Shown here: piece by piece, positions 2,615-57,237 of the stretch | How positions within the stretch are numbered: position 1 is the first letter of the stretch | Layout of the letters: each line of letters starts with the position of its first letter | Translations under genes and position numbers: made by a program | The notes under the pieces: model-generated | What the model saw: only the letters and a program-made list of their open reading frames with translations | What the model was told of the DNA's origin: nothing | Database searches by the model: none | Source of the DNA: Candidatus Heimdallarchaeum aukensis | GTDB taxonomy: Archaea; Asgardarchaeota; Heimdallarchaeia; Heimdallarchaeales; Heimdallarchaeaceae | Direction of reading: 5' to 3' | DNA length: 64,000 nt | Assembly (NCBI GenBank): GCA_021513695.1 | Contig: CP084166.1 | Location: forward strand, 64,001 to 128,000

Positions 2615-2709
2615 TTAATTATCGTATAGTACTCTTTAGAGTTCTGGGATTGGAATTGGGGCTATTATTTCCTGGAGTAAGTAATTGAAAATTGAAAAGA
2701 AGTGTAAAA

Positions 2710-8913: not shown

Positions 8914-11900
8914 TGCACGTAAAAAATAATTTAATTTGGAAGAAAGTATTAATCCTTTCTTTATTAGCTATAATGATTAGTTCACTAGTAGTAGGAATGC
9001 CCAATGCTCCGTTTGTTAATGCAGAAACTAATTCTGCACAATCTTTGCCTGATACAATAAGTTTAGAGGAAGCTAAACAACTAATGCAACAAATAAATGA
9101 AGGCAATGGTGGGGGCAACTTTGCTTCTGTTGAGCAACAAATCATTGATCCTGATTTAGATTTAAGTAGGTTATTAGCTGATAATCCTAATGAATATCAA
9201 CAAACATATCAACCTTGGAAATCTCAAGCTGCTGTTAGAAGTATAACCATCTCTGATGATTATGAATTTATGGCAGTAGGGGGAGGATATCTCTTTGACA
9301 ACGAAGTACAAGTATATCGATGGAACCCTGATATTAATCAATATGCTAAAGTTTGGGTGAGTGGAGATTCAGTTATTAAAGGCGATGTAATAGATGTCGA
9401 TTTTGGAGATACTGATAATAATGATTTCTTAGAAATTATTGCCACATCTTCTGACGGGTATTTCTACGTCTTTGAACAAGAACATATTTTTGACCCTGTA
9501 ACAAATACAGAAAATAGATTTGATCTTGTTTACACTAGTCCTTATTTAGGTCAAGTGTGGGGTGTAGAAGTTAATGATACAGATTTAGATCATCTAGACG
9601 ATATAATTGTCGTAAGTTGGGATCACAAAGTACATGTTTATGAATATTGGTTACACTCTGGTTATCCATTCAATTCAGAACATTGGATTACATATAGAGA
9701 AAAATGGCAAAGTCATGATACAGGTTATCATTTGTCTTCTTTAGTTGTTGGAGATACAAACTATAATGGTCTTCCAGACTTTGTTGTGGGAACGAGAGAA
9801 GGAGCTATTCTAGTTTTCGAAAATAATGGAACTATTTTAGATATCCAAGGACAACCTTATCCTCTTGCCCAAGATAATAGTTACAAATTAATTTATGCTG
9901 ATAATGAGTCAATTTGGAGACCAATTTACTCTATGGATATAGGTAATCTAGATAACTCTCCAGGAGATGAAGTAGTAATAGCTTCCTTTGCTTTTAATGG
10001 ATACATTCTAAGGTATGATGATTATAAAGGATATTACTTACAGAAGCTGATAAAAGACTTTGAATCTTGGACTTTGAAAGACTTTTATCCTGCAGATCAT
10101 TATGTAGATAATGGAACAGCAGGACAAAATGTATATTTCCAAGATCCAAATTATACAGGAACAACAGTTGAAGAGCCTATTTTGCAAAGTAATCCTGCAT
10201 TTATAAAAGGAAACTATCCCTATAATACTGGAGCTGCGCAAAATAATGATACATGTTATACTCATTTCGAATCTAATAGTACTCATGCTGCATGGGAAGT
10301 ATATGATTTTGGAGCAGATGAAGAGGGAACAGGAAATGGGAATGATGCTGCAGACATATTATTAAAATTCAAAACTTTACTATTTGATTACATATATAGA
10401 GATGATTTTATTATTTCTATCTCTCCAGACTATGAACATTGGGTAACTGTTGATCCTTCTCTTATTAATACATTTAATGTTGCCGCATCAACAAAATATC
10501 TCAGAATTAATGTAGATCCAATTTTAATTGAAAATAAATGGAATTACTTCAGATACATCAATGTAACAGTAATTTCTAATTCTACCAAAGATTATAACTT
10601 GTTATCTATAGAATTGCCTTATGTTTACCAAACTGTTTCAACAGCTTTAAGTGCTGAAGTGGGAACTTTAATGACCAGTACAGATACTAATGAAGAAGTT
10701 ATCCATGCAATTTTAGGAACAGTTGATGGCCGTCTTGTAGCTTTTAAATATGATGCCACTTCAGACTCGTTTGTTTTATCTTGGGATAGCTGGGTAGATG
10801 ATAGATTTACTGTTGGAATAAACATATGGGATATAGAACAAGTTAAGAATCTAGGCTCTATGCCTATGATATACGGAGTTACTGATTTGGAAACAGGTTA
10901 TCAACTTAGGATAAGTCCCTCTCCAGGAAGCCAAATTTCACAAGTGATTTTTGATTATACATTGTTCAATATTGATGGAGATTCTCCAGTTACAGGCGAA
11001 TTTGCAATTGTGGGTGGTAATGGAGATGTGTATTACTTTGATAATGGATTTGATTATGATGCTGCACAAACAACCCAATACTTCTCTTCGATCAACGATT
11101 ATGCAACTTATACAGGAAATATATCAATAGGTGCAGTAGAAATTGATACAGACTATTCCCAAGAAGAATTACTTATCGGTCATTACGATCCAAGTCTTTC
11201 TAATCAATACGATGACTTTGAAGATGATTCTTCAGATGTACTTCCAGCAGATATAAAAATATGGACACAAGTATCTTCAAAATATGAGTTAAATATATCA
11301 CTTTATAGTTTGGAAACAACTGGTCAACTTCGTGAAATATTAAAAAGTGCTCAATCAATTCCTTCAGCAGAAGGAGAGGATATTGATGGGGACGGAGATG
11401 TTGATATTGTTGTTTGTATTGAGAATCTATATCTACTTTGGAACATAGGAACACCAAGTAATCCAGAATTTATTTTGGATTCTGATTACTTTAAAGATAT
11501 AAATGAAGTAAAAGGAAGAAGACAATTCCTACATCCTCAATTTGTGGAATTTGAAATGGATGGAATTTATGATCTATCGATTGGCTACTCAAATAGAGTG
11601 GGAGCAACATATTTTGATAATTATGGAACTGCTCTTGCTCCTAAATGGGAAGAAAGAAAAGAGTTAGTTAACAACTTTGATGAAGAAGCTACAATAAATG
11701 TCTATAACTTTACTAGACCTCTCTGGATAAAATATTCAGAATTTGATGAATATTCTACTTTGTTATTAGAACATAATACAGGAAAGAGCTACTATGACAA
11801 GTACTACATATATACAATGCTAGATGATAGAAATGGTGACATGGTTTACTTCATGATTTCAAATAAAATACAAACTAGCTTCATGGTAGCATCTAATCCT

Positions 11901-14900
11901 ACTGTATCTAGAATCGAAGTTAACACCTTCAAATCTGAAGAATATGGAGGGATCTATAAGTGGAGGAATTTTGGATTTAGGGCAATTATAAGCTGGACGA
12001 CAGCAATAGATCTCTATAATTGGACTTTGACTGTAGATTCTGGAGATTTAGACCAAGATGGGAAAGGAGAAATTATAGTAGGAGACTATGATAGTAATGT
12101 ATACATCTTTGAGCATATGACTAATAATACTTACAAACGTGCATTCAGGTCTCCTGATATGCTCCAGTATGTTCCAACTGATGAAACACCTTATAGTTGG
12201 GACAAATTTGGAGGATATGAAGGAGAGTTTAATCAGACAATTTGGAACCATGTGAGCTATTTGCTTGTGAATGCTGATAGTGATGGAGACGGTTATCTTG
12301 AGTTAGCTGCTCTTGCAGGAACAGTTCTGTATGTATTTGAAGACACGGGAATAGATGATACATACTCATACATGTATAGACTAGATGTTTTAAGGAGTTC
12401 AGCAGGAGAATACTTGAAAGAAAATGGTTTTCTTACACCTTCTGGTTTAACATGGGCTCAAGATTTAGATTTAGATGGTTATGGAGAGTTCATAATAGCC
12501 TTTGAAAAACAAGTATTTGTTTATGAACCTTATTCTGGAACACTCTATGAACTGTTTGGTAATGTTGCATCTGATGACCCTGAAACAGGACACTATAATA
12601 TTTTAGGAAATGCTAGGGTATTTGATAATATTACAATAAATGGAATGTTATGTTCTGACATTAATGAAAATGGAAGAGAAGAACTTTTCATTTATGGTTC
12701 TGTAGATGTTGATCTTCTTGATTATGAAGAAGGATTTATTGTAATGATTGAAAGCATCGATCTAGGCTATAAGATAATCTGGCAAGGACCAACAGAGTTA
12801 GTTAGTAGAAATATTATTACAGACCTTGAAATTGCTGACCAGGACTATGATGGTTTCAAAGAATTGATCATTGGTGGAAGTAAAGGTGTAAGTATTTACG
12901 AATTTGTTGGAGGAACAACTGCTAGCTTTACTCAAGAGGGACTAATTACAGGACACATGAATTATCCCCAAATGGCAGCTCATTCACTATTTGGAAAATA
13001 TAGTTACAATGATGATTATGACTATAGAAAACAGAGGTCTCATGATATAAGACAGATAGTTTACAGTGGAGGTTCAAATAATCATTCATATATTTCTGCT
13101 TTTAGTGAGTATAACGATACAATGGGTGCATATGCTATATATCAAAAAGTAAGTCATGACGGAGTAAATTGGTTATCGAGCAAACTTATAGCTTATTGGT
13201 ATTCTGGTGGTTACATAAGTTTATACTTCCCCTCACTTACACAGACAAGTAATTACTCTCTCTGGTTAGCAGTTACTTGTAAATTTTATAGCGTAGGTTT
13301 AGGTTCCGTATATGGCGTTCTTCTATATCGTTCAGATGATTATGGGGCAAATTGGGTATTCGTAGATGGATTGGCTTCAGAATATATAGAAGAAGGTTCA
13401 ACAAATCCGATATATTCACCCACAATATTCCCAACAGGACCTAATTCAATAGGTTTAGTGTATATTTTCAGACCAAATAACACTTATTCAGAATTATACT
13501 ATGGAGGGTTATTTGATAATGGAACAGTAATACCTCAAACAAAAATCGAGGGTTTTGATGATTTCATGTTCAACGGTGTTGATGTTGATTCAAAACCTGA
13601 TAATAGTGGAGTATATGCTGCTGCTTTTAGTGCTAAAAAGTATATTGAAGAAAAAGATGATTACGATATCTGGTACTGTGAATTTAATTCAACCTATGGA
13701 TTAATACTTGAACCAAGAAGACTATTTACTTCATTCTCTGTTGAGCATACTCCTAGTATTACTTATGTCCACAATGATGCCTATTCTAGACTTCTAACAT
13801 TTGATTCTTCTGGATTACAAAAGGCGATGACTTTATCATATGGAATGGTTTCTGATGATGGAATACATTGGTCTGACCCAGATATACTTGCTGAATATCC
13901 AGAGTATATTATTCCTCCAACTAAGTCAAACCCCTATCCAAAGATATCTGGTTTCTCTAACAGTTGGAGTATATATGATCTAGGTTTCAGAGCTCCAAAA
14001 GTTGCTCCAACCTACGATGGTAAATTCATATTACTTACAAAATTTGATGCAACTATTGTCTACTTCTCATTCCCAATCTTCTATATATATTATTATAATG
14101 ACTACGTAAGCCAAATTTATCCATTGAACTTTACAAGTTTTGTAGGGTTAAACACTGTAACAGATCTTGCTGTTGGAGACTCGGATAGAGATGGTAGAAA
14201 AGAGATAATGATAGCTGATGGATATCGAGCAGAAATGTTTGAGTTACTTAACACAAAAAATAGGAAGCAACTTTATACAAGCAAATGGTATAGTCCTGAG
14301 CATGATAATCCTGTTTCCGATGTAACTATGTTTGACACAAATGGTAACGGTTTTCCTGAACTAATTTACAGCGTTCAAGGCGAAGACATTTATGTATATG
14401 ATGTTGTAAATATTCATTTACCAAAGGCAGATTTACATAAATTACAATCAACTACTTTAGACTTATCTGGTGCTGGAAAGGTTATAACTAGAATTAAATC
14501 AGATCTAAATGATGACGGAATAAATGACATGGTGGTTTATTGCGAAGGAGGAAAAATGTATGGAATCTTAGGTAATAACCTGTCAATTTTATGGACTTTG
14601 GAAGATTCATTAGTTTCTCCAAATTGGTTCCTCGAAGAATCAATTTATCATGGTAATAGTGCTCTAATTTTTGTAAATAGTAATGGAACAACTTTGTGGA
14701 TAGACAAGAAAACAGGACAAGTTATAACCTCTCTTGATTTAGGTGAAGGAAGTTATACCTTAAATCCAATAGCAACAATGCTTAACTATACAAAGGATAA
14801 CACCATGGACATTGCCATTAAAGGTGATGCTCCTGGACATATTTATCTCTTTGACGGGAATAATGGTTCGCTTCTAAAGGATCTCACTTTCGACACTGAA

Positions 14901-16922
14901 AGATATGTGCAAGAAATTGAAGTAGCACATGAGCAAGGAGAGGATTATCTCATAGTTTCTTATTATTGGATAGAATATAAAGACCTAGGTGGCGGTATTA
15001 TTGTATGGATATTCCATGGAAAGATTACTGCTTACAACTTATCTTCGTCCTCACTAGATCAAATATGGGAAGTTAACTCTTACTATGCTGGAGGATTTAG
15101 AGGGGCAAATTTAATAGTAGATGATATTAATGGAGATGGAGATTCAGAAATATATGCATTTGGTGGTGGAATAAAATTACTTGATGCTAATGGTACTGAA
15201 TATTGGCGGGCTTACAACTATTTCTACTCTTATGATGCTGTTATATTTGATATAAATGATGATGGAATTAAAGATATAATTACTTCTTCAGGACAGAATA
15301 GTAAAGTTACAGCTCTTGATGGAAAAGATGGAAATGTTACTTGGAGTAATATACCCACCCAGAATATCTATGACTTAGAGATTAGTGACCCAGAAGGAGA
15401 AGATCCAATCCTTTATCTAGCTAACTCTAGAACAGATTATCAAGGAATAATTTTCTTAAACATTAGGAATGGTGGGTTCTTAGGTTACTATTACGACACA
15501 AGTAGTGATTTTCTAAATGATAACGCATTGGTACCAACCACTGTGGATTCAAAACCTGCAGTCTTAGCAGTTGATTATGACGCAGAGAAAATTTATCAAG
15601 TTCAAATAAATGAAACAGAACAAGTTTATGAGCATGATATTATACCTAAACTCTCCTTTGATCAAATACTTAAAACTGGAAAGAATGTTAACCCCGATAC
15701 TGTTATTTATGACAATCTAAACGACGATGAGTATGTAGAAATTTTCTATATACAAAATGGAAATGAGTCATTCATCTATAATCCAATCAAAGGTGAGTAT
15801 ATTGAAGAATATACTATCCCTACAAATGGGAGTGTTCTTTATGCTTTCAAAGCTAATTTATCTGACACTTCATTCTATGATTCTATTTTTATAATTACCT
15901 CTGAATACAAGGTAGGTGTTTTAGATCTCACTTCAATGAGTTATAAAAAGATATTGGACTTATCAGGTTATGTAGATGAAATTGCTTCATATGCTTACTT
16001 GGATATTACTGAAGATGTATTTATTTTAGGTTTCTTTGACTATACAAAGAAAGCATGGTACGTAGGCGCATGGAATATTAAAGGAGAAGAGGTATTCTCA
16101 CCTATTTACCAAGGTTCTCATAAACCAGATCAAATAAATGCAGGTAAATTACTTGATAAAGCCACGTATGAAGAAGGAGCAGCTTTTGTAATAACAAGCT
16201 TTGGTGCATACATATATGCTTATGATCTTAAGGGAACACAACTAGCTATGATTAAACAAGATGGACCTGCAGGTTTCACAGCTTTAGGAGAACTGAAAAA
16301 AGGATTAGGTTTTGAGTTTGTTTACTATAGGTTTGGAGATAAATTCTACTGTTATAACCTTAATACCATGACTGATGAATGGTCATCTACTTTAAGAAAT
16401 GACAATGAACTATTATCTATTGCTGTAGGATATATTGATAGCTCTACTAATCCTGATTATGCTAAAGTATTTGTTTCGCAGAGCGGTACAGGAATTTATG
16501 CATTTGATGATGTAGATAAAGAGTTATGGTATCACAGACATAATTCTTTTGTTGCTAAATTCCTTCATGTGATCAATGATGAAGCTTTAGGCAAGGTTCT
16601 TCAAGTTACAGATTATCATAGAACATTCTACATCAATGGAACAACTGCTGAAGTTTTATATGCTACAAGTACCTTGATGAAACAAGTTCTTTGGGTAGGA
16701 ACATGGTCTTCTCCAGACTCTGCATATGACTCAATAGCATTCTTTGATGGAAACTCATTCTATAGTCGAGGAATAGATGTTTCTTCTTCAGGAGCTTCAA
16801 CAGTGCAAGATCATATGGAAATCTCTGCAGAAAGGTTAACAAGACTTAGTACTCCAATAATTATAATGATGAGTGTAATGGTAACCATAATCACTCTTGT
16901 CTTCAGAAAAAATAAAAGTTAA
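8913..16922 (+). CDS. Giant (2669 aa) integrin-alpha-like surface protein. It has multiple FG-GAP/VCBS-type beta-propeller blades, BNR/Asp-box motifs, PQQ-like blades and a C-terminal TM anchor.
   Basis: N-terminal signal: LILSLLAIMISSLVVG. Repeated blade motifs at about 60-aa spacing include FGDTDNNDFLEIIA, DTDLDHLDDIIVVS, GDTNYNGLPDFVVGT, DIDGDGDVDIVVC, DLDQDGKGEIIVGDYD, DSDGDGYLELAAL, DLDLDGYGEFIIA, DINENGREELFIYG, DQDYDGFKELIIGG, DSDRDGRKEIMIADG, DTNGNGFPELIYS, DLNDDGINDMVVY, DINGDGDSEIYAFGG and DINDDGIKDIITS. BNR-like motifs are RSDDYGANW and VSDDGIHWSDP. The C-terminus is TPIIIMMSVMVTIITLVFRKNKS. Its start overlaps the upstream stop as TAATG, and it is preceded by a GGAGGTG Shine-Dalgarno-like sequence. 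Confidence 0.8.
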   Translation: MHVKNNLIWKKVLILSLLAIMISSLVVGMPNAPFVNAETNSAQSLPDTISLEEAKQLMQQINEGNGGGNFASVEQQIIDPDLDLSRLLADNPNEYQQTYQPWKSQAAVRSITISDDYEFMAVGGGYLFDNEVQVYRWNPDINQYAKVWVSGDSVIKGDVIDVDFGDTDNNDFLEIIATSSDGYFYVFEQEHIFDPVTNTENRFDLVYTSPYLGQVWGVEVNDTDLDHLDDIIVVSWDHKVHVYEYWLHSGYPFNSEHWITYREKWQSHDTGYHLSSLVVGDTNYNGLPDFVVGTREGAILVFENNGTILDIQGQPYPLAQDNSYKLIYADNESIWRPIYSMDIGNLDNSPGDEVVIASFAFNGYILRYDDYKGYYLQKLIKDFESWTLKDFYPADHYVDNGTAGQNVYFQDPNYTGTTVEEPILQSNPAFIKGNYPYNTGAAQNNDTCYTHFESNSTHAAWEVYDFGADEEGTGNGNDAADILLKFKTLLFDYIYRDDFIISISPDYEHWVTVDPSLINTFNVAASTKYLRINVDPILIENKWNYFRYINVTVISNSTKDYNLLSIELPYVYQTVSTALSAEVGTLMTSTDTNEEVIHAILGTVDGRLVAFKYDATSDSFVLSWDSWVDDRFTVGINIWDIEQVKNLGSMPMIYGVTDLETGYQLRISPSPGSQISQVIFDYTLFNIDGDSPVTGEFAIVGGNGDVYYFDNGFDYDAAQTTQYFSSINDYATYTGNISIGAVEIDTDYSQEELLIGHYDPSLSNQYDDFEDDSSDVLPADIKIWTQVSSKYELNISLYSLETTGQLREILKSAQSIPSAEGEDIDGDGDVDIVVCIENLYLLWNIGTPSNPEFILDSDYFKDINEVKGRRQFLHPQFVEFEMDGIYDLSIGYSNRVGATYFDNYGTALAPKWEERKELVNNFDEEATINVYNFTRPLWIKYSEFDEYSTLLLEHNTGKSYYDKYYIYTMLDDRNGDMVYFMISNKIQTSFMVASNPTVSRIEVNTFKSEEYGGIYKWRNFGFRAIISWTTAIDLYNWTLTVDSGDLDQDGKGEIIVGDYDSNVYIFEHMTNNTYKRAFRSPDMLQYVPTDETPYSWDKFGGYEGEFNQTIWNHVSYLLVNADSDGDGYLELAALAGTVLYVFEDTGIDDTYSYMYRLDVLRSSAGEYLKENGFLTPSGLTWAQDLDLDGYGEFIIAFEKQVFVYEPYSGTLYELFGNVASDDPETGHYNILGNARVFDNITINGMLCSDINENGREELFIYGSVDVDLLDYEEGFIVMIESIDLGYKIIWQGPTELVSRNIITDLEIADQDYDGFKELIIGGSKGVSIYEFVGGTTASFTQEGLITGHMNYPQMAAHSLFGKYSYNDDYDYRKQRSHDIRQIVYSGGSNNHSYISAFSEYNDTMGAYAIYQKVSHDGVNWLSSKLIAYWYSGGYISLYFPSLTQTSNYSLWLAVTCKFYSVGLGSVYGVLLYRSDDYGANWVFVDGLASEYIEEGSTNPIYSPTIFPTGPNSIGLVYIFRPNNTYSELYYGGLFDNGTVIPQTKIEGFDDFMFNGVDVDSKPDNSGVYAAAFSAKKYIEEKDDYDIWYCEFNSTYGLILEPRRLFTSFSVEHTPSITYVHNDAYSRLLTFDSSGLQKAMTLSYGMVSDDGIHWSDPDILAEYPEYIIPPTKSNPYPKISGFSNSWSIYDLGFRAPKVAPTYDGKFILLTKFDATIVYFSFPIFYIYYYNDYVSQIYPLNFTSFVGLNTVTDLAVGDSDRDGRKEIMIADGYRAEMFELLNTKNRKQLYTSKWYSPEHDNPVSDVTMFDTNGNGFPELIYSVQGEDIYVYDVVNIHLPKADLHKLQSTTLDLSGAGKVITRIKSDLNDDGINDMVVYCEGGKMYGILGNNLSILWTLEDSLVSPNWFLEESIYHGNSALIFVNSNGTTLWIDKKTGQVITSLDLGEGSYTLNPIATMLNYTKDNTMDIAIKGDAPGHIYLFDGNNGSLLKDLTFDTERYVQEIEVAHEQGEDYLIVSYYWIEYKDLGGGIIVWIFHGKITAYNLSSSSLDQIWEVNSYYAGGFRGANLIVDDINGDGDSEIYAFGGGIKLLDANGTEYWRAYNYFYSYDAVIFDINDDGIKDIITSSGQNSKVTALDGKDGNVTWSNIPTQNIYDLEISDPEGEDPILYLANSRTDYQGIIFLNIRNGGFLGYYYDTSSDFLNDNALVPTTVDSKPAVLAVDYDAEKIYQVQINETEQVYEHDIIPKLSFDQILKTGKNVNPDTVIYDNLNDDEYVEIFYIQNGNESFIYNPIKGEYIEEYTIPTNGSVLYAFKANLSDTSFYDSIFIITSEYKVGVLDLTSMSYKKILDLSGYVDEIASYAYLDITEDVFILGFFDYTKKAWYVGAWNIKGEEVFSPIYQGSHKPDQINAGKLLDKATYEEGAAFVITSFGAYIYAYDLKGTQLAMIKQDGPAGFTALGELKKGLGFEFVYYRFGDKFYCYNLNTMTDEWSSTLRNDNELLSIAVGYIDSSTNPDYAKVFVSQSGTGIYAFDDVDKELWYHRHNSFVAKFLHVINDEALGKVLQVTDYHRTFYINGTTAEVLYATSTLMKQVLWVGTWSSPDSAYDSIAFFDGNSFYSRGIDVSSSGASTVQDHMEISAERLTRLSTPIIIMMSVMVTIITLVFRKNKS

Positions 16923-17113: not shown

Positions 17114-17791
17114 ATGTTGATGGTACCTACTCAGATGAAAAAAATAACCATACTAGGGACAACTGGTAGTGGAAAGACCACCTTTTTAGAAGCTTTATTT
17201 GGTGATTTTGAAAAAAATGATGTTAAAAGAGATTTGAGTAAAGAAAAAAGTTCAAATTGTGATTTTATTCCTTTGAAAAATAATACATTCAAAGAAAGTA
17301 CAACAACAATAAGTTTGAATGTCATTAATTCATTGCTTTATTTGACTACATTTAATCGATTAGGTTTAGAAAAGTTCGAAAATAGAGACAATATTGACTT
17401 TGAAAATGTTGAAGAGATTTATCAAATAGTTTTCAATGATCCTGCAGGACAAGAAAGATTTGATTTCATGCAAGAGATAGCAGTAAGAGGAGCAAACCTA
17501 GTAATTATAATGGCTGATGGCACAAATATCTCGAGTTTAGAAAAAGTAGTTCATTATATTTCGTTGGTAAAAATTGAAGAAAATCTATCTAAAAAGAAAA
17601 TACCGACTATTATTTTCATCAACAAATCTGATTTAAAGGAAAAGGGTGTTTATTTAGGAAAAAATGTAGCTGAGCAGATTATTTATTCAAGCATTCTTGA
17701 TGAGAAATTACTTATTTATGAAACTTCTAACCTTAAGAGAGAAACATATGATGAACCTTTGAGGATTATTTTTAACTATCTTTCATACTAA
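17114..17791 (+). CDS. Ras-superfamily small GTPase (Rab/Ras-like G motifs) with an unusually long insertion between the P-loop and switch II.
   Basis: G1 is GTTGSGKTT, G3 is DPAGQERF (compare Rab WDTAGQERF) and G4 is NKSD. About 87 residues separate G1 from G3, against about 40 in canonical Ras/Rab. An alternative start at 17135 (MKKITILG) is possible. Confidence 0.75.
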   Translation: MLMVPTQMKKITILGTTGSGKTTFLEALFGDFEKNDVKRDLSKEKSSNCDFIPLKNNTFKESTTTISLNVINSLLYLTTFNRLGLEKFENRDNIDFENVEEIYQIVFNDPAGQERFDFMQEIAVRGANLVIIMADGTNISSLEKVVHYISLVKIEENLSKKKIPTIIFINKSDLKEKGVYLGKNVAEQIIYSSILDEKLLIYETSNLKRETYDEPLRIIFNYLSY

Positions 17792-19254: not shown

Positions 19255-19704
19255 ATGAAATTGAATATTACCCAATTTAAGATTAAATTCAAGGATAAAA
19301 TAGAAATTGAAAATGAAGAGAAATTTGCAGATAATATAATCTATTATTATCCGTTTTTTCAATCTTTAGATAAAAATGAGTTAGAGAAGTCTCTTCAATC
19401 AATAAGAGAAGAAAAAAAAGTCTTGGAGAAAAAATTCAAAAAAATAAAAGAAGAGTTCTCAGATATACTGGGAGAGATAGCAAAAATACGTTTCACAGCT
19501 AATGAATTATATAATCAAAATAGGGTTATAGCTCTGACTACAGGGTTATTAAGACATAAGCTGATAGATTTACATAATAATAATGTTGAACTTCCTTTTG
19601 ATTATGAGGAAACACTTAAGTTTGTAGAACATTTTATTTATAGATATTTAACTAAAAAAGAAGATAAAAGACTTGTTGCCCAGCTACCTTTTAAAGAGAT
19701 TTGA
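19255..19704 (+). CDS. Hypothetical coiled-coil protein (149 aa).
   Basis: The ORF has a K/E-rich predicted coiled-coil segment (EKSLQSIREEKKVLEKKFKKIKEEF). It forms an operon-like unit with the 18889 ORF and the recombinase. Confidence 0.45.
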   Translation: MKLNITQFKIKFKDKIEIENEEKFADNIIYYYPFFQSLDKNELEKSLQSIREEKKVLEKKFKKIKEEFSDILGEIAKIRFTANELYNQNRVIALTTGLLRHKLIDLHNNNVELPFDYEETLKFVEHFIYRYLTKKEDKRLVAQLPFKEI

Positions 19705-19745
19705 GAAAATTCACACTTTTTCTATTTGGAATAGTAATACTAAGT

Positions 19746-19753
19746 TTTATATT
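19746..19753 (+). promoter_or_regulatory. Candidate TATA box (TTTATATT) for the serine recombinase gene.
   Basis: It lies about 31-38 nt upstream of the ATG at 19784. Confidence 0.3.
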
Positions 19754-19783
19754 AAAAATAGAGAACCTTATTGCAAGGTCAAA

Positions 19784-20506
19784 ATGATTCGTTGTGTTAT
19801 TTATGCTCGTACATCTACAGCTGATCAAACTAGTGGGTTAGAAACACAGATTGAAGATGTAACGGCTAAGATATATCAAGCTGGAGATAGAGCAATAGTA
19901 AGAATAATTAAAGATCAAGATATTGCAGGCGATAGTGACCCTGAATATAGACCCGGATTTAAAGAAATCCTAGAAATGGCAAAGAATAATCAATTTGATG
20001 AGTTATGGTCTCAATCAAGAGACAGATTGTCAAGAGACGTTGATATTTTGGGTTATATTCGCATTCTTCTAAAAAAGAATAATGTTTCTATAGTTTGTTT
20101 AGATGATGAAGAAAACAAGGTTATTTCTAGAGTTAAAGACCTATTTGGTGAAATGGAACTTCAAAAATATAGAGAAAAAAGATACAAAGGAATGATGAGA
20201 AGACTAAAGGAACAAAAAGTAATGTCAAGACCTCCTTTTGGTTATAAAGTGAATGAGGAAGGAAAATTAGTTGTAGATGAGGAAAAAGCAGCAATAATTA
20301 GAAGGCTCTTTTCTGAATTTGACAACCCTTTGGCTTCTTTGAAAAGTTTAAGTTTGAAATATAATTTATCTGTCTCTACACTGCGAAATATTCGTTCAAA
20401 CCCAATTTATCGAACTGGTGAAGTACGTTGGGCAGGAAAAATTGCTTATTATGTTGATCCTATTGTCCCTGAAAATAAAGATCAAAAACTTAAGTTAGAC
20501 GACTAA
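19784..20506 (+). CDS. Serine recombinase: a resolvase/invertase-type catalytic domain plus a partial large-serine-recombinase-type 'recombinase' domain.
   Basis: MIRCVIYARTSTADQ contains the catalytic Ser in the Y-A-R-x-S-T-x-x-Q context, and the DRLSRD motif is present. The C-terminal region has the RPPFGYKV (PFGY) motif typical of the recombinase domain of large serine recombinases. The track ORF start (19673) is TTG; the ATG at 19784 gives a canonical N-terminus. Confidence 0.8.
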   Translation: MIRCVIYARTSTADQTSGLETQIEDVTAKIYQAGDRAIVRIIKDQDIAGDSDPEYRPGFKEILEMAKNNQFDELWSQSRDRLSRDVDILGYIRILLKKNNVSIVCLDDEENKVISRVKDLFGEMELQKYREKRYKGMMRRLKEQKVMSRPPFGYKVNEEGKLVVDEEKAAIIRRLFSEFDNPLASLKSLSLKYNLSVSTLRNIRSNPIYRTGEVRWAGKIAYYVDPIVPENKDQKLKLDD

Positions 20507-48321: not shown

Positions 48322-50154
48322 ATGTCGGAAGTCTTTGACAAAATTCTCTTATTATTAGATGAAATTTTTGAGATTGTAACAAATAAACGTTGGGCACATT
48401 ATTCTAAAAAAAGAACAGAAATATTATTATCACAAAAGATTTATGAACTAAAACATATCCTTTCCGAGATTCCTATTGACTTTAACATTAATAGCAAGGC
48501 TTCTTCTGAATATTTTGAAAAAATATTAAGTAAAATAACTGAAATTATGAATAATATGACTCCAGCAGATCTTCTATTTTCGTGGTATGAAATTGAAATT
48601 TTTAGATTAAACTTTGCAACCATTTATGCAAATATGTGGGGTCAGGCGGGAGACTTAAGTATAGCTGGGACAGCTAATGCACTAGCAAATGCTTTACTAG
48701 GAATACAAACCTTAGATGTTGATGATCTTTACGTTCCTTGGGGACACCACCAATTTCATAAAAGACGTGTAATTATTTTAAACTATCTCGATTCAGCTAT
48801 GAGTTTTTTCTTTACGCTTGTAAATACACTAGATATTGTCTACAAACATGATATAGAACATTGGTTGACAGAAGCTTTAAGGGCATGTGAGCAATATTTA
48901 TACTACTCTGATTTATTTTGGGATGTTCCTAAAAACGTTGCTTTAGAAAAGAAAAGAAGATTGGATACTTCCAAACCAAATTACTCTATGTATTACGCAT
49001 TATTTTTCGGAATAGATGAAATAATAAACAATTTTCTGATGAGTCAAAAGTTCTTTTTTGATAGTGAAATAAATGTGGAAAATGAAACTTTTGCAGTCAA
49101 AACTCCTGAAGATTTTTGGAAAACAGTCTACAAGATTATTGATAAGTTAGATTTTTACATTTCGGATTTGAAGGAGCATGTCGAGAAAAAAACATTTGGT
49201 TATAACGAATCTCCTCTTGAGGATGAAACAGTATTAGAATCTCTTTACCAAATCGATCTTACAAAAGTATATGTCAAAGGTTTTTATTCACTTTTTAAAT
49301 ACTTTAAAGAGAGCGCTGCTAATATTCTAAAATCTCTTAGAGATACTGTATTCATTAATTTCTTTAATTTTCTTCATAGATATGAAGAAATGATGAGCCA
49401 ACCTGACTTTATTAGTAGTCAAATGGCAGACGGTATATCTTTTCTGTTAGAAGAATTGTTACCTTGGAGCGGGTTAATAGCACTAAAATTAGATGATTAT
49501 TCTCTATTAGAAGAAGTAGAAAAAAAATTTGCTTATGTTTTTTCAAAAAAAGGAAAAGATCGATACCCTACTATGAATGGTTTAAGGATACTAGTAAGGC
49601 TTACACTTGATATTTCAAAAGATAAAACTGATAGATTTAAAGAATATGCAAAAGACTTAATTTATATCTCGAAAAAAGCTTCTTTTGAACCACGAAACTC
49701 TTTTGCTTTTGCATTGTTAGGTTATTTGTTAAGCTTAATAATAAAAACAATTTCCATTAAACAATTTAAACAGACAATTTCTGAAGTTTTTGAAAATATG
49801 TACGCTTCGTTTGGTCACCAATTGTCTGATGAAATTGAAATATATCTTCACAACTTGTTTTTGGCTCTCGATAATGAAAAACCCTCTTACAATATGAGTA
49901 GGTTATTAGCTCCAAAATATTATGATCCTTACACTTATTTTGTCCCAGATTTGAATAAAATTGCGAAAGATATTGAGAAAGATATAATCTATCTTCCATT
50001 TAATCTACAAAGCGATTCTATTATTCATGCTGAGCATTCAATGATAGAAGAACCTGAAACTTATTTAAAAAGAACGGAGCTAACAGAGTCACAAGGTAAA
50101 GAACAAGGAACAGAGATGTTGGCAGAACCTAAACTAGAAAAAGAAGAGGAATAG
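48322..50154 (+). CDS. Hypothetical alpha-helical protein (610 aa) with no recognisable motifs.
   Basis: It is a long ORF with an ATG start, coding-like composition and an acidic C-terminal tail. Confidence 0.5.
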   Translation: MSEVFDKILLLLDEIFEIVTNKRWAHYSKKRTEILLSQKIYELKHILSEIPIDFNINSKASSEYFEKILSKITEIMNNMTPADLLFSWYEIEIFRLNFATIYANMWGQAGDLSIAGTANALANALLGIQTLDVDDLYVPWGHHQFHKRRVIILNYLDSAMSFFFTLVNTLDIVYKHDIEHWLTEALRACEQYLYYSDLFWDVPKNVALEKKRRLDTSKPNYSMYYALFFGIDEIINNFLMSQKFFFDSEINVENETFAVKTPEDFWKTVYKIIDKLDFYISDLKEHVEKKTFGYNESPLEDETVLESLYQIDLTKVYVKGFYSLFKYFKESAANILKSLRDTVFINFFNFLHRYEEMMSQPDFISSQMADGISFLLEELLPWSGLIALKLDDYSLLEEVEKKFAYVFSKKGKDRYPTMNGLRILVRLTLDISKDKTDRFKEYAKDLIYISKKASFEPRNSFAFALLGYLLSLIIKTISIKQFKQTISEVFENMYASFGHQLSDEIEIYLHNLFLALDNEKPSYNMSRLLAPKYYDPYTYFVPDLNKIAKDIEKDIIYLPFNLQSDSIIHAEHSMIEEPETYLKRTELTESQGKEQGTEMLAEPKLEKEEE

Positions 50155-50168
50155 TTTAGATTTTTTTT

Positions 50169-50636
50169 CTACTCTTTTGGAAGTAAATATTTAATTTGTA
50201 ATTCATTCATTCTTTGAATGATAAGACTTTGATGCTCCTCTGGAATGTAAAAAACTCCTTTCTTGACCATCTCACTAAGTTCAATTGCTTTTAGATCTTC
50301 AGAAATGTCTTGAATCATTTTTTTAATATCTCTCTTCCAGACTTTTGGATGGAAACCTCCTACAATAAAGTATGTTTTAGAATCGTCAAAATAAAATTTA
50401 AATTGCTCCATTTGGATATTATAAAGTTTTGTTCCCAGTTCTCTTGCAAAAACAACTATTGCTGCACTAAAACCCGAAAAAAGTATTTCGTCAACATTTG
50501 TGTTGACATAAGATTTGTGGAAAAGAACCATTCCACTTTGTTCTATAACAGAAAGCTGAGTTATCGGATTCTTGATGTAAGGTCTTCCTCTTCTTTGATG
50601 TTTTTTAGCCTTCTGATTATCTTTCATCAAAATCAC
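50169..50636 (-). CDS. Small protein with a roadblock/LC7 (MglB-like) or longin-like fold, plus a basic N-terminal tail.
   Basis: LSVIEQSGMVLFHKSY...ILFSGFSAAIVVFARELG...EQFKFYFDDSKTYFIVGG follows the roadblock alpha-beta-beta-alpha-beta-beta pattern (compare LC7 GVQGIIVVNTEGIPI...). The N-terminal KAKKHQRRGRPYIK tail is basic. The fold assignment comes from pattern recognition only. Confidence 0.4.
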   Translation of the reverse strand: MILMKDNQKAKKHQRRGRPYIKNPITQLSVIEQSGMVLFHKSYVNTNVDEILFSGFSAAIVVFARELGTKLYNIQMEQFKFYFDDSKTYFIVGGFHPKVWKRDIKKMIQDISEDLKAIELSEMVKKGVFYIPEEHQSLIIQRMNELQIKYLLPKE

Positions 50637-50940
50637 AAGTTTATCTTGACAATTCTAAAAAAACAGTTGGCTTCTAACCTTTTATTTTTTGTGTTGGACA
50701 GATTGTTATTTATATTTAATTTATAAGTAGTAATTATCTAGATTTTATGTTTTGAAAAGAAACAAATATATATTGTCATTTCGATGAACTTTCAATTAAG
50801 AGGTGATTGTTTAGTATGAAAAAGGAATATTTTTGTAAGTTAGAAGATTATAAACAATCCCTCTTGAAGAAATAAACTTCTCATTGGATTGTCTTCTATT
50901 TGATACAAAACCTTCTATAACAATCATATAGCAAAAAGAG

Positions 50941-53900
50941 ATGAAAAAAATGAATAAAATTAAAAAAAATGTTATCTTTCCAGAACCAGTCTCTACTATT
51001 AAAATCAGACCATTGCAAAAAACAGAAAAAGATTACAAAGAAATAGCTCGATGCTTTAATTCTTTCAATGACTCGGATTCTTGGCCTGATGGATTTGGTG
51101 GTTCATTTGTTTTTACTGAAGAGTGGGCAGAGAATGAATATTCGTTAAAAGATCTTTCTTCTCACTTTGTTGCTTTAACAAAAGATGAAGATCAAAAAAT
51201 TGTAGGAGTATGTTATTGTAATAGAAGTTCTCATTTAAAAGATGCGTGGTATGTAGCTCTTTTAGGAGTAGATCCAGCTTTTCAAGGTAAAAAAATTGGT
51301 AAATCATTATTGCTTAATGCTACTAGATTTGCTTTGGAAAAACAAGCAAGATTAATTTCACTTCATACATGGGGAGGAAATTTGAAAGCTATGCCTCTTT
51401 ATAAACGACAAGGATACAAGTGGAGACCAGATACAGTAGTTTACATGGAAAATTATATTCCCCAAATTCTTAATTTTCCTCTCTTTACACCAATATTTAA
51501 GCAAATATCTTGGTACGATAGTTTTAAACCTCATATTACCCAAGAACAAGATAAAGAATTTATTGAAAAAATGAAAATATATGAATATAAATTCCAAAAT
51601 GAAAAAGATGATTTCGAATTAACCACGTGGATTGACAGAACAATTGGATACATTAGTGGTTTCCATTTAAAACATGAGAAAGAAGATATTTCTATAAAAG
51701 CTTATACTCCTAAATCTGAAGCTTTTATAGGAGTAGAAAAATTTCCTGTTTTCTTAGAGATTTCTAATAATACAGATAAAGAAAAAACTCTTAATATTTT
51801 TCTAATTAGCTCTTCATCAATTAAAATAGATGAATCAAAGACAGACGAACAAATCAAAATAAAACCAAATACAAAGATAAAATTGTCTTTTAAAGGTTCA
51901 TTTCTTCCATCTACTCCTGAATTTGATGATAAGAGATTCAAACAATCTCTAGTAGAACATTACGTTTCTTTTAAAATTCAATACAATGAAACTGAATTTC
52001 ATCTGTATGTCGGTAAGATTCCTAAATCACCTGTAAAAGTTGAGATTTCACCATATTACTTAAATGTTTTACCTAGTTCAAAGACCTCTATTCCTTTTAG
52101 TATCAGTAATTTTACAGGAGAAAAGCAAAATTGGACACTAAAAATTAAAAATGGAAATTATGTCTCTTTTCTCTCTAATACTATAGAAACAGAAGTTTCG
52201 ATATATGACAACTTGGTTGAAGTAGATGCAGAAGTAGAAAATACTTCCACCACAGTAGACTATATTCAAGCTAAAATCTATTCCAACGAGATCAACAAAG
52301 AGATTGGCTCATTTGATTTACCTATATTGATAGTTAATAAAGATAAAGCCATTCACTATAAGATAAACCAATTCCACTATATCGAAAATAAGTATGTTAG
52401 AGTAAAGTTCGATGAAACTCCTTTAAGTAGTAATATGATTTATATAGATGATAAAAAGAGAAAACTCAAAATAATGGGGAATTCAATCGTCTTAGGATTA
52501 CCATTTGACAATGAAGGTTCAGAGTTTTACACAAAAAAACTTAACCACGAAATAAAAGAGTTGGAAGATGGAATATTATTTATAAGTACGTGTCTTTCTG
52601 AAAACAAAAAGGGTATAAAAGTTGTAAGAAAACTCTTTATTCCACATGATGCATCTCCATTGAAGATTAGTTATGAGCTAGAAAATACCACAGATAACAA
52701 AATAGAGAACATGGGTGTTCATTATGGATATTGGTGGTGGTCTGGACATCAACCACAAAAATATAAGATAATTCCATTGAAAGAAGGAATTTACTACTCT
52801 AATCTATTCGAACTATCGCTTGAATTAGGAAAAGATCCTTCAAAACTAAAAGAAGGTTGGGTTGCTTGTAAATACGATAATGGTTTTGCAGGTTTTCTCT
52901 TTAATTTAGAAAAAACAGACAAAGTATATTTAGATAGCACACTTCCACATGTAGATTATATTCTCCCATTTATTGAGCCAAAAACTAAAATTGAGCTTCC
53001 AGCTGTATATTTCTATTTTGCTGATGACTGGAAGAGTGTAAGAGAAAAATGGTCTGAACTCTATTTAGGTAAATATTTAGTCGATGAAGAAGACGAACAA
53101 CCTTCACCAATGAGGATTTATGGTATTTCATTAGGAAAAGAAGCATCAATTGTTGATGGGTTATTTATTGAAAAAAATAACTCTAAATTCTACTTTAATT
53201 TTGACGCCTTTCTACCTACTGAGTTTAAAGGGAAAATTCTATTCAAAGAAGGTAAAATTTATCCCAATGAAATAAAACTAGAAGGCAAGAAGATTGCTAG
53301 GTTCTCACAAGATCTAAAAATTGACGTTCTTGATACCCTTGAAACTTTAAAAGAAAAATTAATTCTAGATACAGGCTCATATATTGATGAAAAAGATATT
53401 GCTCTATGTTTCTACAGCAACGAAAAACCAATTAAAAAAGAGATTAACGAAGAAAAAAACAAATATATCCAAGTTTCTAATGGATTGGTTACATTTCGTG
53501 CAAGTCATAACTTCAATGGTGTTGCTTACTTTCTATCCTATAAAGACCAGAAAAATATATTCAAAACTTTTTGGCCAGAGAGTCCACCCTTTCTATGGGA
53601 TAACCGCTTTTTTGGAGGAATTGCTCCGCACATTGTACAATATAACAGTTGGGATTTCCAAGATTATTTGGATCTAAAATTTGAACTATTACCTGATGTT
53701 CGAAAGGGAAAACTTGAAGGAGTAGGAATGAAAAGTGAGATAATAACTTATTCTCCTTATCTTAAAGGCTTGCAAGTTACTAATTACTATTTGACACTAC
53801 CTGCTTCACCTTTTCTTTTAGTACAACAGCAAATTTACAACCATTCAGGTGTTTCTAGATACTTTAATCCAGTGATAAGTATAAACCTCGAACCATCAGG

Positions 53901-54255
53901 AACAACAGAAGATAAATACTACATTGATAATGGTGAGACTTATTTAACCTTTAGAACTCAAGATTTCGAAAGCGACGCTTGGAAACGCAAGAAAGGAAAA
54001 ACAAGATGGGTTGCTTATAAAAATAGAGATGCTCCCTATTATTTAGGTGTTGTAATCAACTCTAAGAAATTTGGATATACTGTAGAACCTTACATACCTA
54101 ATTTAAACATTTCAAAAATAATTGTGCAATCTCCTATAGCGAAAATAAAACCTAAAGAAACGCTTACTTTTGAAACAATGATAATATTTACTGATGAACT
54201 TGAAAAAATCAAACCATTTACCAATAATAATATTAGAGAATTAATTGAAGAATAA
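50941..54255 (+). CDS. Large (1104 aa) protein: an N-terminal GNAT acetyltransferase domain fused to a ~930-aa domain of unknown function.
   Basis: The GNAT motif is YVALLGVDPAFQGKKIGKSLLLNATRFALE. The remainder is beta-rich with no recognised motifs. Confidence 0.55.
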   Translation: MKKMNKIKKNVIFPEPVSTIKIRPLQKTEKDYKEIARCFNSFNDSDSWPDGFGGSFVFTEEWAENEYSLKDLSSHFVALTKDEDQKIVGVCYCNRSSHLKDAWYVALLGVDPAFQGKKIGKSLLLNATRFALEKQARLISLHTWGGNLKAMPLYKRQGYKWRPDTVVYMENYIPQILNFPLFTPIFKQISWYDSFKPHITQEQDKEFIEKMKIYEYKFQNEKDDFELTTWIDRTIGYISGFHLKHEKEDISIKAYTPKSEAFIGVEKFPVFLEISNNTDKEKTLNIFLISSSSIKIDESKTDEQIKIKPNTKIKLSFKGSFLPSTPEFDDKRFKQSLVEHYVSFKIQYNETEFHLYVGKIPKSPVKVEISPYYLNVLPSSKTSIPFSISNFTGEKQNWTLKIKNGNYVSFLSNTIETEVSIYDNLVEVDAEVENTSTTVDYIQAKIYSNEINKEIGSFDLPILIVNKDKAIHYKINQFHYIENKYVRVKFDETPLSSNMIYIDDKKRKLKIMGNSIVLGLPFDNEGSEFYTKKLNHEIKELEDGILFISTCLSENKKGIKVVRKLFIPHDASPLKISYELENTTDNKIENMGVHYGYWWWSGHQPQKYKIIPLKEGIYYSNLFELSLELGKDPSKLKEGWVACKYDNGFAGFLFNLEKTDKVYLDSTLPHVDYILPFIEPKTKIELPAVYFYFADDWKSVREKWSELYLGKYLVDEEDEQPSPMRIYGISLGKEASIVDGLFIEKNNSKFYFNFDAFLPTEFKGKILFKEGKIYPNEIKLEGKKIARFSQDLKIDVLDTLETLKEKLILDTGSYIDEKDIALCFYSNEKPIKKEINEEKNKYIQVSNGLVTFRASHNFNGVAYFLSYKDQKNIFKTFWPESPPFLWDNRFFGGIAPHIVQYNSWDFQDYLDLKFELLPDVRKGKLEGVGMKSEIITYSPYLKGLQVTNYYLTLPASPFLLVQQQIYNHSGVSRYFNPVISINLEPSGTTEDKYYIDNGETYLTFRTQDFESDAWKRKKGKTRWVAYKNRDAPYYLGVVINSKKFGYTVEPYIPNLNISKIIVQSPIAKIKPKETLTFETMIIFTDELEKIKPFTNNNIRELIEE

Positions 54256-54285
54256 AACTCTATTTACTAGAGTAAATCTTCTTTT

Positions 54286-56304
54286 TTATTTATTAAATCC
54301 TGTATACTCCAGAATCTCTTTGATATTCTTTTCATAAAATTGTGGTTTTACTGGTGCTCTCGGTATTTCTTTTATTCTTTCAGCAAGAGAAAGTGTCCAA
54401 ATTCTTATTTCTGAACTCATTTCAGAAGCAATAACAGCAATAATTCCGTTTTTTATGGCTTGCAAACTAATTGTAAAGTCTTCATAGAAAACATCCTTTA
54501 ATCTACGAATTTCTTTATCTCCAGTGATACTTTCTGCAAGTTGATTAATGGCCATTAGTAATCCCGAAAGTAAAATGTCATTAGCCTTCAGCTTTTCTTT
54601 TAGGTTAGAATAAACAGGGACTCCACTTTCGCTAATGACAAGTACTCCTAAAATCTCTGTCTCATGGTTTTTTGAACTTTCGACTTTAAGTGATAGAAGA
54701 GACTTGAATTGAGGAAGAATATAGTCGATTACATTTTGTTTTTTTATTTGTAATGTACCTGTTTTTTCAGAAAGACGGATATTTTTTTCTACTTCATCTA
54801 TATCTTTCTTAAGCGCATCTAGTTCTATTTCTTCACCTATCTTTCTGGCTTCTAGCAATAAATTAAACGCTGTCTCTGTATCTCCGTCTATCGCAACCAA
54901 AACCGCATTCACAAGATAACTTACTGCTAAGAGCTGATTATGCTTATATTCTACAGCTAATTGTTTGACTGTTTCACAATAGTTAAGTGCTAAATTAAGG
55001 TTTTCTTGAGTTTCAAGTAGTCTATAATATATTAAATAAGCTACAGCTAACTGAATGTTAGAATAGAGTATCAATTCTGTATCGTTAATGAGAGAAGCGT
55101 TTTCAAGTGCTGAATGAAGAAAGGAAATTGCACTAGTTAAGTTGTGTTGAAGCATTTCTAAGAACCCTCTGAGATAATCAACTCTAATATTAATCGAAGG
55201 AACTTCAAGTTCTCTCGCTAGACTTTTTAGTTCTTTTAAATATCTCTTAGCTTCTGCTATTTTTTCCACTCTTAAATAGTAATGAACTAGTTCAAATAAA
55301 ATGAATGCTTTGTGCATCGATTTTTCATTTTTCTGTATTTCATATGCAGCCAAAAATGATTCTTCAGCTCTATTATCTCCCAAAAGAAAATAGAGATTTC
55401 CAATTTCAGTGAGATAAAGATAAGGCCATTTTCCTGTGCTCTTTTTGTAAAGATTTATAGCTTTTTCCATCATATCTTTAGCTTTTTTTATTTTTCCTTC
55501 AACTGCTAATACTTCTGCTAAATTTCCAGTTGCGATAGATAATCTATAGTTATCATTGAATTGGCTATGGATTTCAATGAGTTTCTCAAAACATTCTATA
55601 GCTTCTTTAGTTTTACCAAAATAACTGTAAATGCTTCCTTTTACATTTAGGAATGTTGTTTTGCTTTTATAGGATCCATACCTTTCTATATAAGGGCTGA
55701 TAAATGAAAACTCCTTTTCATAATTTATATCTACCCCAGCGTGAAGTAACCACCATATAATATTATGAAACGCTTCGTGAAGATGGTGGTGTTCAATTAT
55801 TTCTTCTGACTTTGTTATTCTCTCTTTAACTATTTTTAAAATAGGTTTAATTTTATCTATTTCACCTTGTTGTCCATGAACCCATGATTGTATGTTGTAA
55901 ATTGCTGCTTGTATCTCGTTTGTTATCTTTTTCTTTTTTCGAATCTCTTTTTCTTGAGCATCAATTTCTCTTACTATCTTTGAATAATTTTGGGGGTTCT
56001 CTTGAAAATAGAGACTAAATAAGGAAACAAAAGGGTCATCAACTTTTTCGAGTGTTTTGATAAGCTCTTCTGTAGCCCGCATTTTTTGGGTCAGATAGCA
56101 GGTAAGTGTAGCTAAAGTAACTATTTGCTGGTTGTTTGAAGGGATAGTTTTCTCTTTTTCCAAAAGAATTTTCAATGCAGAAAAAGATCCTCTTTGAAGT
56201 TTCTCATTAGGATTAGGTGAACTCTGCTTTTTTACTTCATTTACAACAAGTTCTCTACTTTCTTCATCTAACCTTTTGAGCATTTCTTCGTATATTAATT
56301 GCAT
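54286..56304 (-). CDS. TPR-repeat protein (672 aa) with a C-terminal roadblock/LC7-like domain.
   Basis: The central region has TPR-like helical repeats (e.g. AIECFEKLIEIHSQFNDNYRLSIATGNLAEVLAVEGKIKKAKDMMEKAINLYKK). The C-terminus ILGVLVISESGVPVYSNL...DILLSGLLMAINQLAESI...DFTISLQAIKNGIIAVIASE follows a roadblock-like pattern. Confidence 0.5.
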   Translation of the reverse strand: MQLIYEEMLKRLDEESRELVVNEVKKQSSPNPNEKLQRGSFSALKILLEKEKTIPSNNQQIVTLATLTCYLTQKMRATEELIKTLEKVDDPFVSLFSLYFQENPQNYSKIVREIDAQEKEIRKKKKITNEIQAAIYNIQSWVHGQQGEIDKIKPILKIVKERITKSEEIIEHHHLHEAFHNIIWWLLHAGVDINYEKEFSFISPYIERYGSYKSKTTFLNVKGSIYSYFGKTKEAIECFEKLIEIHSQFNDNYRLSIATGNLAEVLAVEGKIKKAKDMMEKAINLYKKSTGKWPYLYLTEIGNLYFLLGDNRAEESFLAAYEIQKNEKSMHKAFILFELVHYYLRVEKIAEAKRYLKELKSLARELEVPSINIRVDYLRGFLEMLQHNLTSAISFLHSALENASLINDTELILYSNIQLAVAYLIYYRLLETQENLNLALNYCETVKQLAVEYKHNQLLAVSYLVNAVLVAIDGDTETAFNLLLEARKIGEEIELDALKKDIDEVEKNIRLSEKTGTLQIKKQNVIDYILPQFKSLLSLKVESSKNHETEILGVLVISESGVPVYSNLKEKLKANDILLSGLLMAINQLAESITGDKEIRRLKDVFYEDFTISLQAIKNGIIAVIASEMSSEIRIWTLSLAERIKEIPRAPVKPQFYEKNIKEILEYTGFNK

Positions 56305-56451
56305 TGTGTTAATCCCTTCAGCTTATTAATTAAAATCTAGAATTTAAGTCTTTACTCTAACCGTGCAAATATTTACACTTAGACCATCGTGAAAGGAAAT
56401 TAAGGCTGGATGAAATACTAATATTTTTATTTGAACAGTGAAAAGATTAGT

Positions 56452-57237
56452 ATGAAATCTTTAATAGTTTTAACTCAACCAGAATGCAAAAGAATAATAG
56501 CAAAAGGAATTCTTAAGCATCCTCATTTTAAACATTCATATGAAAAAGGTAAAATTTTTCTTGCTAGAGGATCAACTAATGCTTATATTCTTGAAGAAAT
56601 AAAAAAGGAAGCAATCGAAAAACAATTTTATGTGGCAGGGCAGATTACAGGAGATAAAGAGATTATCAAAAGGTACGGTGGTGTTTCTTCTAATAAACGG
56701 ATGAAAGAAATAGTTTTAGAAAAAAAACAAATAAGAGAAATAGATGACTCAAAACAAGAATTAGAGAAATTTAGCTCCGAAGACTTGATAATAAAAGGAG
56801 GAAACATTTTAGATGATAATTATGTAGCTGGAGTTTATATGGCTCATCCAAATGGTGGAACTATTGGAAACATCCTCCCAATTGCTGTAGCAAGGGGAAT
56901 CCCTATACTTGTTCCTATTAGCTTAATTAAGAGAAGTTCTGAAGATGTATTTATTCTTGCTCAGTTAATGGGGAATGAAACATTTAAACCAGAACTTGTA
57001 ATGGGTCATCCTATTGGAATAATGCCTATTATCGGAGAAGTTTTTACTGAATTAGATGCTTTTGAACTTCTGTTTCCTGAAGTTGAATTTGTTCATATAG
57101 GTTCTGGAGGAGTAGGAAAAGCTGAAGGTTCTTTGCACTTTCTTATGATTGGAGAAGAAGATAAGGTGAAAAATGCTTTCAACGAAATTAAGAAATTAAT
57201 TGAAAATGAAAAGGATTACCAGCCTTTTATTGAGTAA
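56452..57237 (+). CDS. Hypothetical protein (about 261 aa) of unknown function.
   Basis: It is a coding-like ORF. The track start at 56431 is TTG; the ATG is at 56452. It lies immediately upstream of the lipid kinase gene, same strand. Confidence 0.5.
   Translation: MKSLIVLTQPECKRIIAKGILKHPHFKHSYEKGKIFLARGSTNAYILEEIKKEAIEKQFYVAGQITGDKEIIKRYGGVSSNKRMKEIVLEKKQIREIDDSKQELEKFSSEDLIIKGGNILDDNYVAGVYMAHPNGGTIGNILPIAVARGIPILVPISLIKRSSEDVFILAQLMGNETFKPELVMGHPIGIMPIIGEVFTELDAFELLFPEVEFVHIGSGGVGKAEGSLHFLMIGEEDKVKNAFNEIKKLIENEKDYQPFIE

Follow-up and report, generated by a model that had tools for sequence, protein, structure and literature searches.

Two predicted roadblock/longin-superfamily proteins of Candidatus Heimdallarchaeum aukensis, one fused to tetratricopeptide repeats and one carrying a basic N-terminal extension

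To what kind of small-GTPase partner, if any, do two proteins encoded close together in the Asgard archaeon Candidatus Heimdallarchaeum aukensis correspond? The longin/roadblock fold is a docking platform for small GTPases in eukaryotes. Both genes lie in a stretch of 64,000 nucleotides (contig CP084166.1, positions 64,001 to 128,000, about 30% G+C), hereafter called the window. A preliminary description of this DNA had read both products as roadblock-like: a stand-alone protein of 155 aa with a basic tail, and a protein of 672 aa joining tetratricopeptide repeats (TPRs) to a C-terminal domain, with a GNAT protein encoded between them. The three open reading frames (ORFs; 155, 1104 and 672 aa) are present at the positions it gave. 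Because homologues with 40–93% identity to the 155-aa and 672-aa proteins recur across many Heimdallarchaeial genomes, both genes are considered real:

50169..50636, minus strand: small stand-alone longin gene; 155 aa if read from GTG, but probably 152 aa with the ATG at 50627 as start
54286..56304, minus strand: ORF of 672 aa, encoding TPRs and a C-terminal roadblock/longin domain

As Pfam Robl_LC7 matches neither protein at E ≤ 1, the roadblock call was judged from structure prediction and profile comparison. Both AlphaFold2 (AF2) models display the longin order of elements, b-b-a-b-b-b-a-a. Solved longin domains gave the best structural matches, with the C-terminal helices aligned as well, and similarity to solved roadblock proteins was also detected. 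Both domains thus very probably belong to the roadblock/longin superfamily. They are also related to each other. A direct BLASTP search of the small-longin domain against the domain of the TPR fusion found nothing and a first comparison of shallow profiles was weak (34%); comparison of profiles built from deeper alignments showed that the two are homologous. Centrin and ribosomal protein S8, returned from the Protein Data Bank (PDB) by hmmsearch with the shallow profiles of both domains, were rejected as chance matches. In the explanation that we favour, at slightly better than even, the two domains would be paralogues in an Asgard clade whose nearest eukaryotic relative, as judged from sequence profiles, is the first longin domain (LD1) of Mon1, Fuzzy and HPS1.

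The small protein is predicted to consist of a flexible extension and a compact core:

50565..50636, minus strand: basic disordered N-terminal extension (residues 1–24, net charge +7)
50184..50564, minus strand: longin core (residues 25–151, AF2 model)

In the model, the core is made of strands b1 (25–32), b2 (37–42), b3 (73–76), b4 (79–85) and b5 (89–95), of helices a1 (50–66), a2 (101–117) and a3 (133–151), and of a short helix at 120–125. This is not the roadblock order, a-b-b-a-b-b-b(-a): the protein begins with a disordered segment and has three helices after b5. The predicted topology is that of a longin. The basic tail exists too, but at the other end: the stretch KAKKHQRRGRPYIK occupies residues 9–22, in an N-terminal and not a C-terminal position. 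Residues 1–14 have pLDDT values below 50 and are disordered in the model. Across the small-longin family the extension has a median length of 18 aa and a median net charge of +3, with 24% K+R versus 7% D+E. The gene probably starts not at the GTG but three codons downstream, at the residue-4 ATG where the nearest homologues begin, which makes the protein 152 aa long. A conserved motif, DE-x-LFSGFSAA-x-I-x-F-x-RELG, opens helix a1, and the hairpin reads S-G-[MVL], without proline. NCBIfam has no family for the 155-aa protein, and hmmsearch of PDB sequences with a deep small-longin profile found nothing.

The 672-aa protein carries its domain behind a helical scaffold:

54832..55659, minus strand: TPR superhelix (residues ~216–491; TPR_12 and MalT-like TPR in Pfam, with the same matches in homologues)
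54694..54732, minus strand: conserved amphipathic helix before b1 (residues 525–537; AF2 helix, fragment residues 35–47, pLDDT 60–72)
54304..54654, minus strand: C-terminal roadblock/longin-superfamily domain (residues 551–667; b-b-a-b-b-b-a-a)

The TPRs are confirmed by Pfam (TPR_12, E 4e-18; TPR_MalT, E 2.4e-11). TPR_12 (65.8 bits, cut-off 30.1) and TPR_8 (30.9, cut-off 25.7) score above their gathering cut-offs, and TPR_MalT (43.9) slightly below its own of 45. Residues 1–215 match no family. The AF2 model of residues 491–672 (pLDDT 80) comprises two linker helices, then b-b-a-b-b-b-a-a. The b1-b2 hairpin has the motif S-G-[VIL]-P-[IV]-[YF]-S, and helix a1 the motif L-[IL]-S-G-L-[LI]-x-A-I-x-x-F. 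The helix at residues 525–537, set off from b1 by a linker of 13 residues, retains its hydrophobic periodicity in 30 fusion-family homologues and, in the model, is a possible counterpart of roadblock helix a1. The sub-type of the domain is ambiguous: because it has an amphipathic helix before b1, as in roadblocks, together with two helices after b5, as in longins, we class it as an intermediate member of the superfamily.

An exhaustive profile search with the C-terminal 182 residues yielded 32 cluster representatives. Most homologues are 590–720 aa long, with the domain C-terminal behind TPR repeats; one is a 140-aa stand-alone form, and two metagenome proteins, P0085 (314 aa) and P0091 (193 aa), have a hydrophobic N-terminal segment, judged by eye, in front of the domain. 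The sequence of this segment suggests that it probably spans the membrane and that these are membrane-anchored versions. Conservation of the fusion in related genomes, which the preliminary description had proposed to check, was found: the same architecture extends from Lokiarchaeia to Heimdallarchaeia (by source names, Lokiarchaeum ossiferum, Hermodarchaeota/Promethearchaeota, Hodarchaeales and Heimdallarchaeaceae). The L. ossiferum member, NEF87_000369, is annotated only as 'tetratricopeptide repeat protein'.

We then consider which known family lies closest. For the fusion domain, the top Foldseek matches are roadblocks (dynein LC7, E 7e-5; MP1/p14; LAMTORs; Asgard Roadblock3; MglC), and the only significant PDB sequence match is 9jue, Roadblock3 of Ca. 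Prometheoarchaeum syntrophicum (E 0.0011). With hhalign, the fusion family aligns to 9jue at 85.4% (E 5.8e-6, 79 columns) and, on the same scale, to a Mon1 LD1 alignment of human and fly sequences from PDB entries at 86.4% (E 4.7e-6, 64 columns). The LD1 reference (PF19036, Fuz_longin_1; PDB 9rs7, 9lol, 8c7g) was matched by 22 of 30 fusion members and 34 of 54 small longins (best 1.6e-5). No PF19036 score reaches the gathering cut-off of 26.1 bits; at the sequence level, this recurrent signal indicates remote homology to LD1 and not membership. Robl_LC7 gave sub-threshold matches to 4/30 fusion members (best 4.7e-4) and to 0/54 small longins, never reaching its gathering score, and Intu_longin_1 matched just 3/30 fusion members.

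The Foldseek ranking, the 9jue alignments, the few Robl_LC7 matches and the conserved helix before b1 are what speaks for the reading of the preliminary description, in which both proteins are genuine Roadblock/LC7/MglB-type GTPase-activating proteins (GAPs) or guanine nucleotide exchange factors (GEFs) that serve a Ras-like GTPase in the manner of MglA/MglB or Ragulator. Roadblocks (9jue, MglB/LAMTOR2-3, PF03259) indeed have the same five-stranded core and central helix, 9jue has the same G-L-P hairpin as the fusion domain, and their function as a dimeric GTPase platform would, by analogy, be expected here too. Yet the 155-aa protein lacks the defining N-terminal helix, the fusion domain has two C-terminal helices, and neither the Robl_LC7 match nor an adjacent mglA-type GTPase gene, as in MglA/MglB regulator-GTPase pairs, is found at the window locus. 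We regard this reading as unlikely, and the overall interpretation of the preliminary description as partly supported.

The b1-b2 hairpin bears on a further possibility, that the proteins are GAP-type longins of the folliculin/NPRL2/SMCR8 class, providing an arginine finger for a Rag- or Arf-like GTPase. This class, defined by a contiguous Gly-Pro (GP) motif, was recently noted in Heimdallarchaeia (PMC12290439), and its 'FLCN/SMCR8-type' longins share with our proteins the fold and the Heimdallarchaeial occurrence. Glycine and proline are also both present in the hairpin of the fusion family. However, they are not contiguous at the end of the b1-b2 loop (G71-[VIL]-P73 in the fusion family; S-G-[MVL] in the small longins). 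In addition, our proteins lack a DENN module, score lower in structural comparison and give no profile matches. An arginine, R144, is conserved in 24/30 fusion-family members and may be such a finger; because the GP motif is absent, we rank the reading lowest and consider it most improbable. Canonical eukaryotic longins (Sec22b, VAMP7, TRAPPC1/2/4, AP sigma, COPI zeta/delta) differ from our proteins, which have neither a SNARE motif nor TRAPP or adaptin partners and show no signal of these families at the sequence level.

Taken as a whole, the best explanation, in which we have moderate confidence, is a dimeric GTPase-binding platform, TPR-scaffolded in one protein and basic-extended in the other. 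Characterised roadblock/longin pairs (MglB, LAMTOR2/3, TRAPPC1/C4, Mon1-Ccz1) all dimerise via the central helix and the edge strand and present a platform to a small GTPase (PMC10933270). By analogy with these pairs, the domains described here would dimerise through the same elements, either each with itself or the small longin with the TPR-longin. Such a dimer would bind a small GTPase, of which Asgard archaea have many, and control its nucleotide state or its location, the direction of regulation being likewise a matter of analogy. The TPR arm may recruit further partners, and the basic extension may give affinity for an anionic surface, for example a membrane. A conserved interface fits the data, because conservation in both families peaks in the hairpin between b1 and b2 and over the initial turns of the central helix.

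Several observations weigh against this explanation. Besides the missing Robl_LC7 matches, the 155-aa protein has no Pfam longin or roadblock match at E ≤ 0.1, every Pfam longin and roadblock match stays below its gathering threshold, and the small-longin profile, compared alone with Mon1 LD1, is not significant (hhalign, 4.8%). Each protein has one longin domain, versus three in the tri-longin RabGEF subunits Mon1, Fuzzy and HPS1, and the 672-aa protein is otherwise TPR/helical. A heterodimer is not obligatory, because the TPR fusion occurs in lineages without the small-longin family. Of 24 Heimdallarchaeial loci, most have no GTPase gene within 10 kb, and none lies near the TPR-longin gene in the Loki, Hermod and Hod loci and one further locus. 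Finally, the conservation of the neighbourhood is confounded with general synteny, because unrelated metabolic genes are conserved there as well (a SnoaL-like pair, an epimerase, a Pol-beta nucleotidyltransferase and a 262-aa protein are found in the same region). Compared with Mon1/Fuzzy/HPS1, moreover, the Asgard proteins come without an identified Ccz1/Inturned/HPS4-type partner, and their TPR fusion and basic N-terminal extension have no eukaryotic counterpart.

Asgard GTPase genes generally lie outside operons with roadblock or longin genes (PMC10933270), in agreement with the loci studied here. The only small GTPase of the window (17114-17791, plus strand; Ras, Roc and Arf matches) is 33 kb from the longin genes and divergent, with partial best PDB matches to Ypt7, Arl8 and Ran. 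These cover only residues ~94–218, and the Pfam span is 8–222, strongest at ~100–220. A link between this GTPase and the longins was ruled out by the distance and the lack of conserved linkage. Directly upstream of it, on the same strand, are two giant ORFs (2692-16922, plus strand), one of 2073 aa containing bacterial TSP3 repeats and the other of 2669 aa containing FG-GAP repeats. Nearby, a serine recombinase gene (19673-20506, plus strand), recognised by its Resolvase N-terminal domain (E 2.3e-20), may point to a mobile element. Among the 24 loci, only L001 and L014 have GTPase genes nearby. L001 alone has a GTPase so near the longin, an Arf-type one (L001:13396-13926) that lies 3 kb further on, past a split orthologue of the 610-aa gene described next.

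What, then, accompanies the longin genes? One gene beside the small longin encodes a candidate partner:

48322..50154, plus strand: 610-aa orphan, conserved neighbour of the small longin gene

Used as query, the 610-aa protein retrieved 21 loci from species-representative genomes, all Heimdallarchaeota. Orthologues (40–89% identity) occur in 21 species genomes, in Heimdallarchaeota only. The window is most closely related to the complete Ca. Heimdallarchaeum endolithica PR6 genome, in which the local gene order is the same. In hidden Markov model (HMM) scans, 16/24 loci have the small longin no more than 7 kb from the 610-aa orthologue, and the two are directly adjacent in the window, L001, L007 and L008. 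The two genes stay together through four arrangements: they are in tandem on the same strand with gaps of 144–197 bp (L001, L008), abut tail-to-tail in the window and L007, and elsewhere are 1.6–6 kb apart. In 10/24 loci the same scans place the TPR-longin gene on the opposite strand, within 6 kb of this orthologue; outside Heimdallarchaeaceae it has no recurrent neighbour (four distant-lineage loci). An operon-like triad of small longin, 610-aa gene and TPR-longin was downgraded, general synteny explaining much of the signal. Pfam, NCBIfam and PDB sequences gave no match to the 610-aa protein; a weak Sec7-like HUS signal (E 1.3e-4) was dropped, as it recurs in just 3/18 orthologues and PDB sequences do not bear it out.

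The persistence of this gene pair is part of the case for a function without GTPase regulation, in which the longin would be an adaptor or assembly module (sigma/zeta-like on a helical solenoid) or would act in signalling from a MalT-type TPR scaffold, with the 610-aa neighbour as helical partner. Further support comes from the best structural matches, which include AP sigma, COPI zeta/delta and SNARE longins, from the MalT-like TPR region, of a type usual in signalling scaffolds, from the lack of a linked GTPase, and from Eme et al. 2023, who reported Asgard adaptor-complex domains. We consider this reading improbable, a shade below the roadblock one. Even less credence is given to a specific variant of the platform: a Mon1-Ccz1-like LD1 heterodimer of small longin and TPR-longin, a single-domain forerunner of the tri-longin RabGEFs (Mon1-Ccz1, BLOC-3, CPLANE), that would activate a Rab7/Arl8-like Asgard GTPase with the 610-aa orphan as third helical subunit. 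We judge this very unlikely.

Some further features of these loci were recorded. The PR6 (CP084167.1) orthologue of the 155-aa protein (L007:11835-12304) consists of two ORFs of 84 and 88 aa (P0006, P0057), reflecting either a frameshift/pseudogene or a sequencing error. At L003:281-775, 9 kb from the small longin, a 164-aa protein weakly matches both longin HMMs. The protein at L005:9367-9813 belongs to a separate family of 148–181 aa without Pfam match, found directly upstream of the small longin in 6 loci. The split 610-aa orthologue (L001:10585-12301; overlapping ORFs of 294 and 284 aa) is directly downstream of the small longin. Two other genes lie close by in the window:

50941-54255, plus strand: GNAT-containing ORF between the small longin and TPR-longin genes (1104 aa)
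56431-57237, plus strand: 268-aa protein with a weak DUF2067 match (E 0.012)

The GNAT assignment was correct (Acetyltransf_1, E 3.8e-14, residues 59–160); neither Pfam nor PDB sequences match the ~930 residues outside it. Orthologues of the 1104-aa protein are full-length in 4 related loci and fragmentary in 1 more. The 268-aa protein is encoded in 14/24 related loci, always near the small longin or the TPR-longin.

Lokiarchaeum encodes 41 longin and 38 roadblock domains (PMC4917890), and the Asgard roadblock/longin superfamily comprises 130 asCOGs with many lineage-specific fusions (bioRxiv 10.1101/2020.10.19.343400). Two more paralogues in this well-documented expansion are not surprising in themselves. 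The searchable literature yielded no account of Asgard TPR-longin/roadblock fusions, and none of archaeal Mon1/Fuzzy-type LD1 relatives or tri-longin proteins. What is new is a defined Asgard clade whose sequence profile is midway between archaeal roadblocks and the Mon1/Fuzzy/HPS1 LD1, and which bears on the origin of eukaryotic tri-longin RabGEFs from single-domain ancestors. Also new are the orphan 610-aa family that tracks the small longin in Heimdallarchaeaceae and the conserved TPR-longin/roadblock architecture. The latter is present in the cultured Lokiarchaeum ossiferum, which makes NEF87_000369 a tractable pull-down target. If a GTPase partner were found, it would offer a direct test of whether endolysosomal-type GEF platforms predate eukaryotes.
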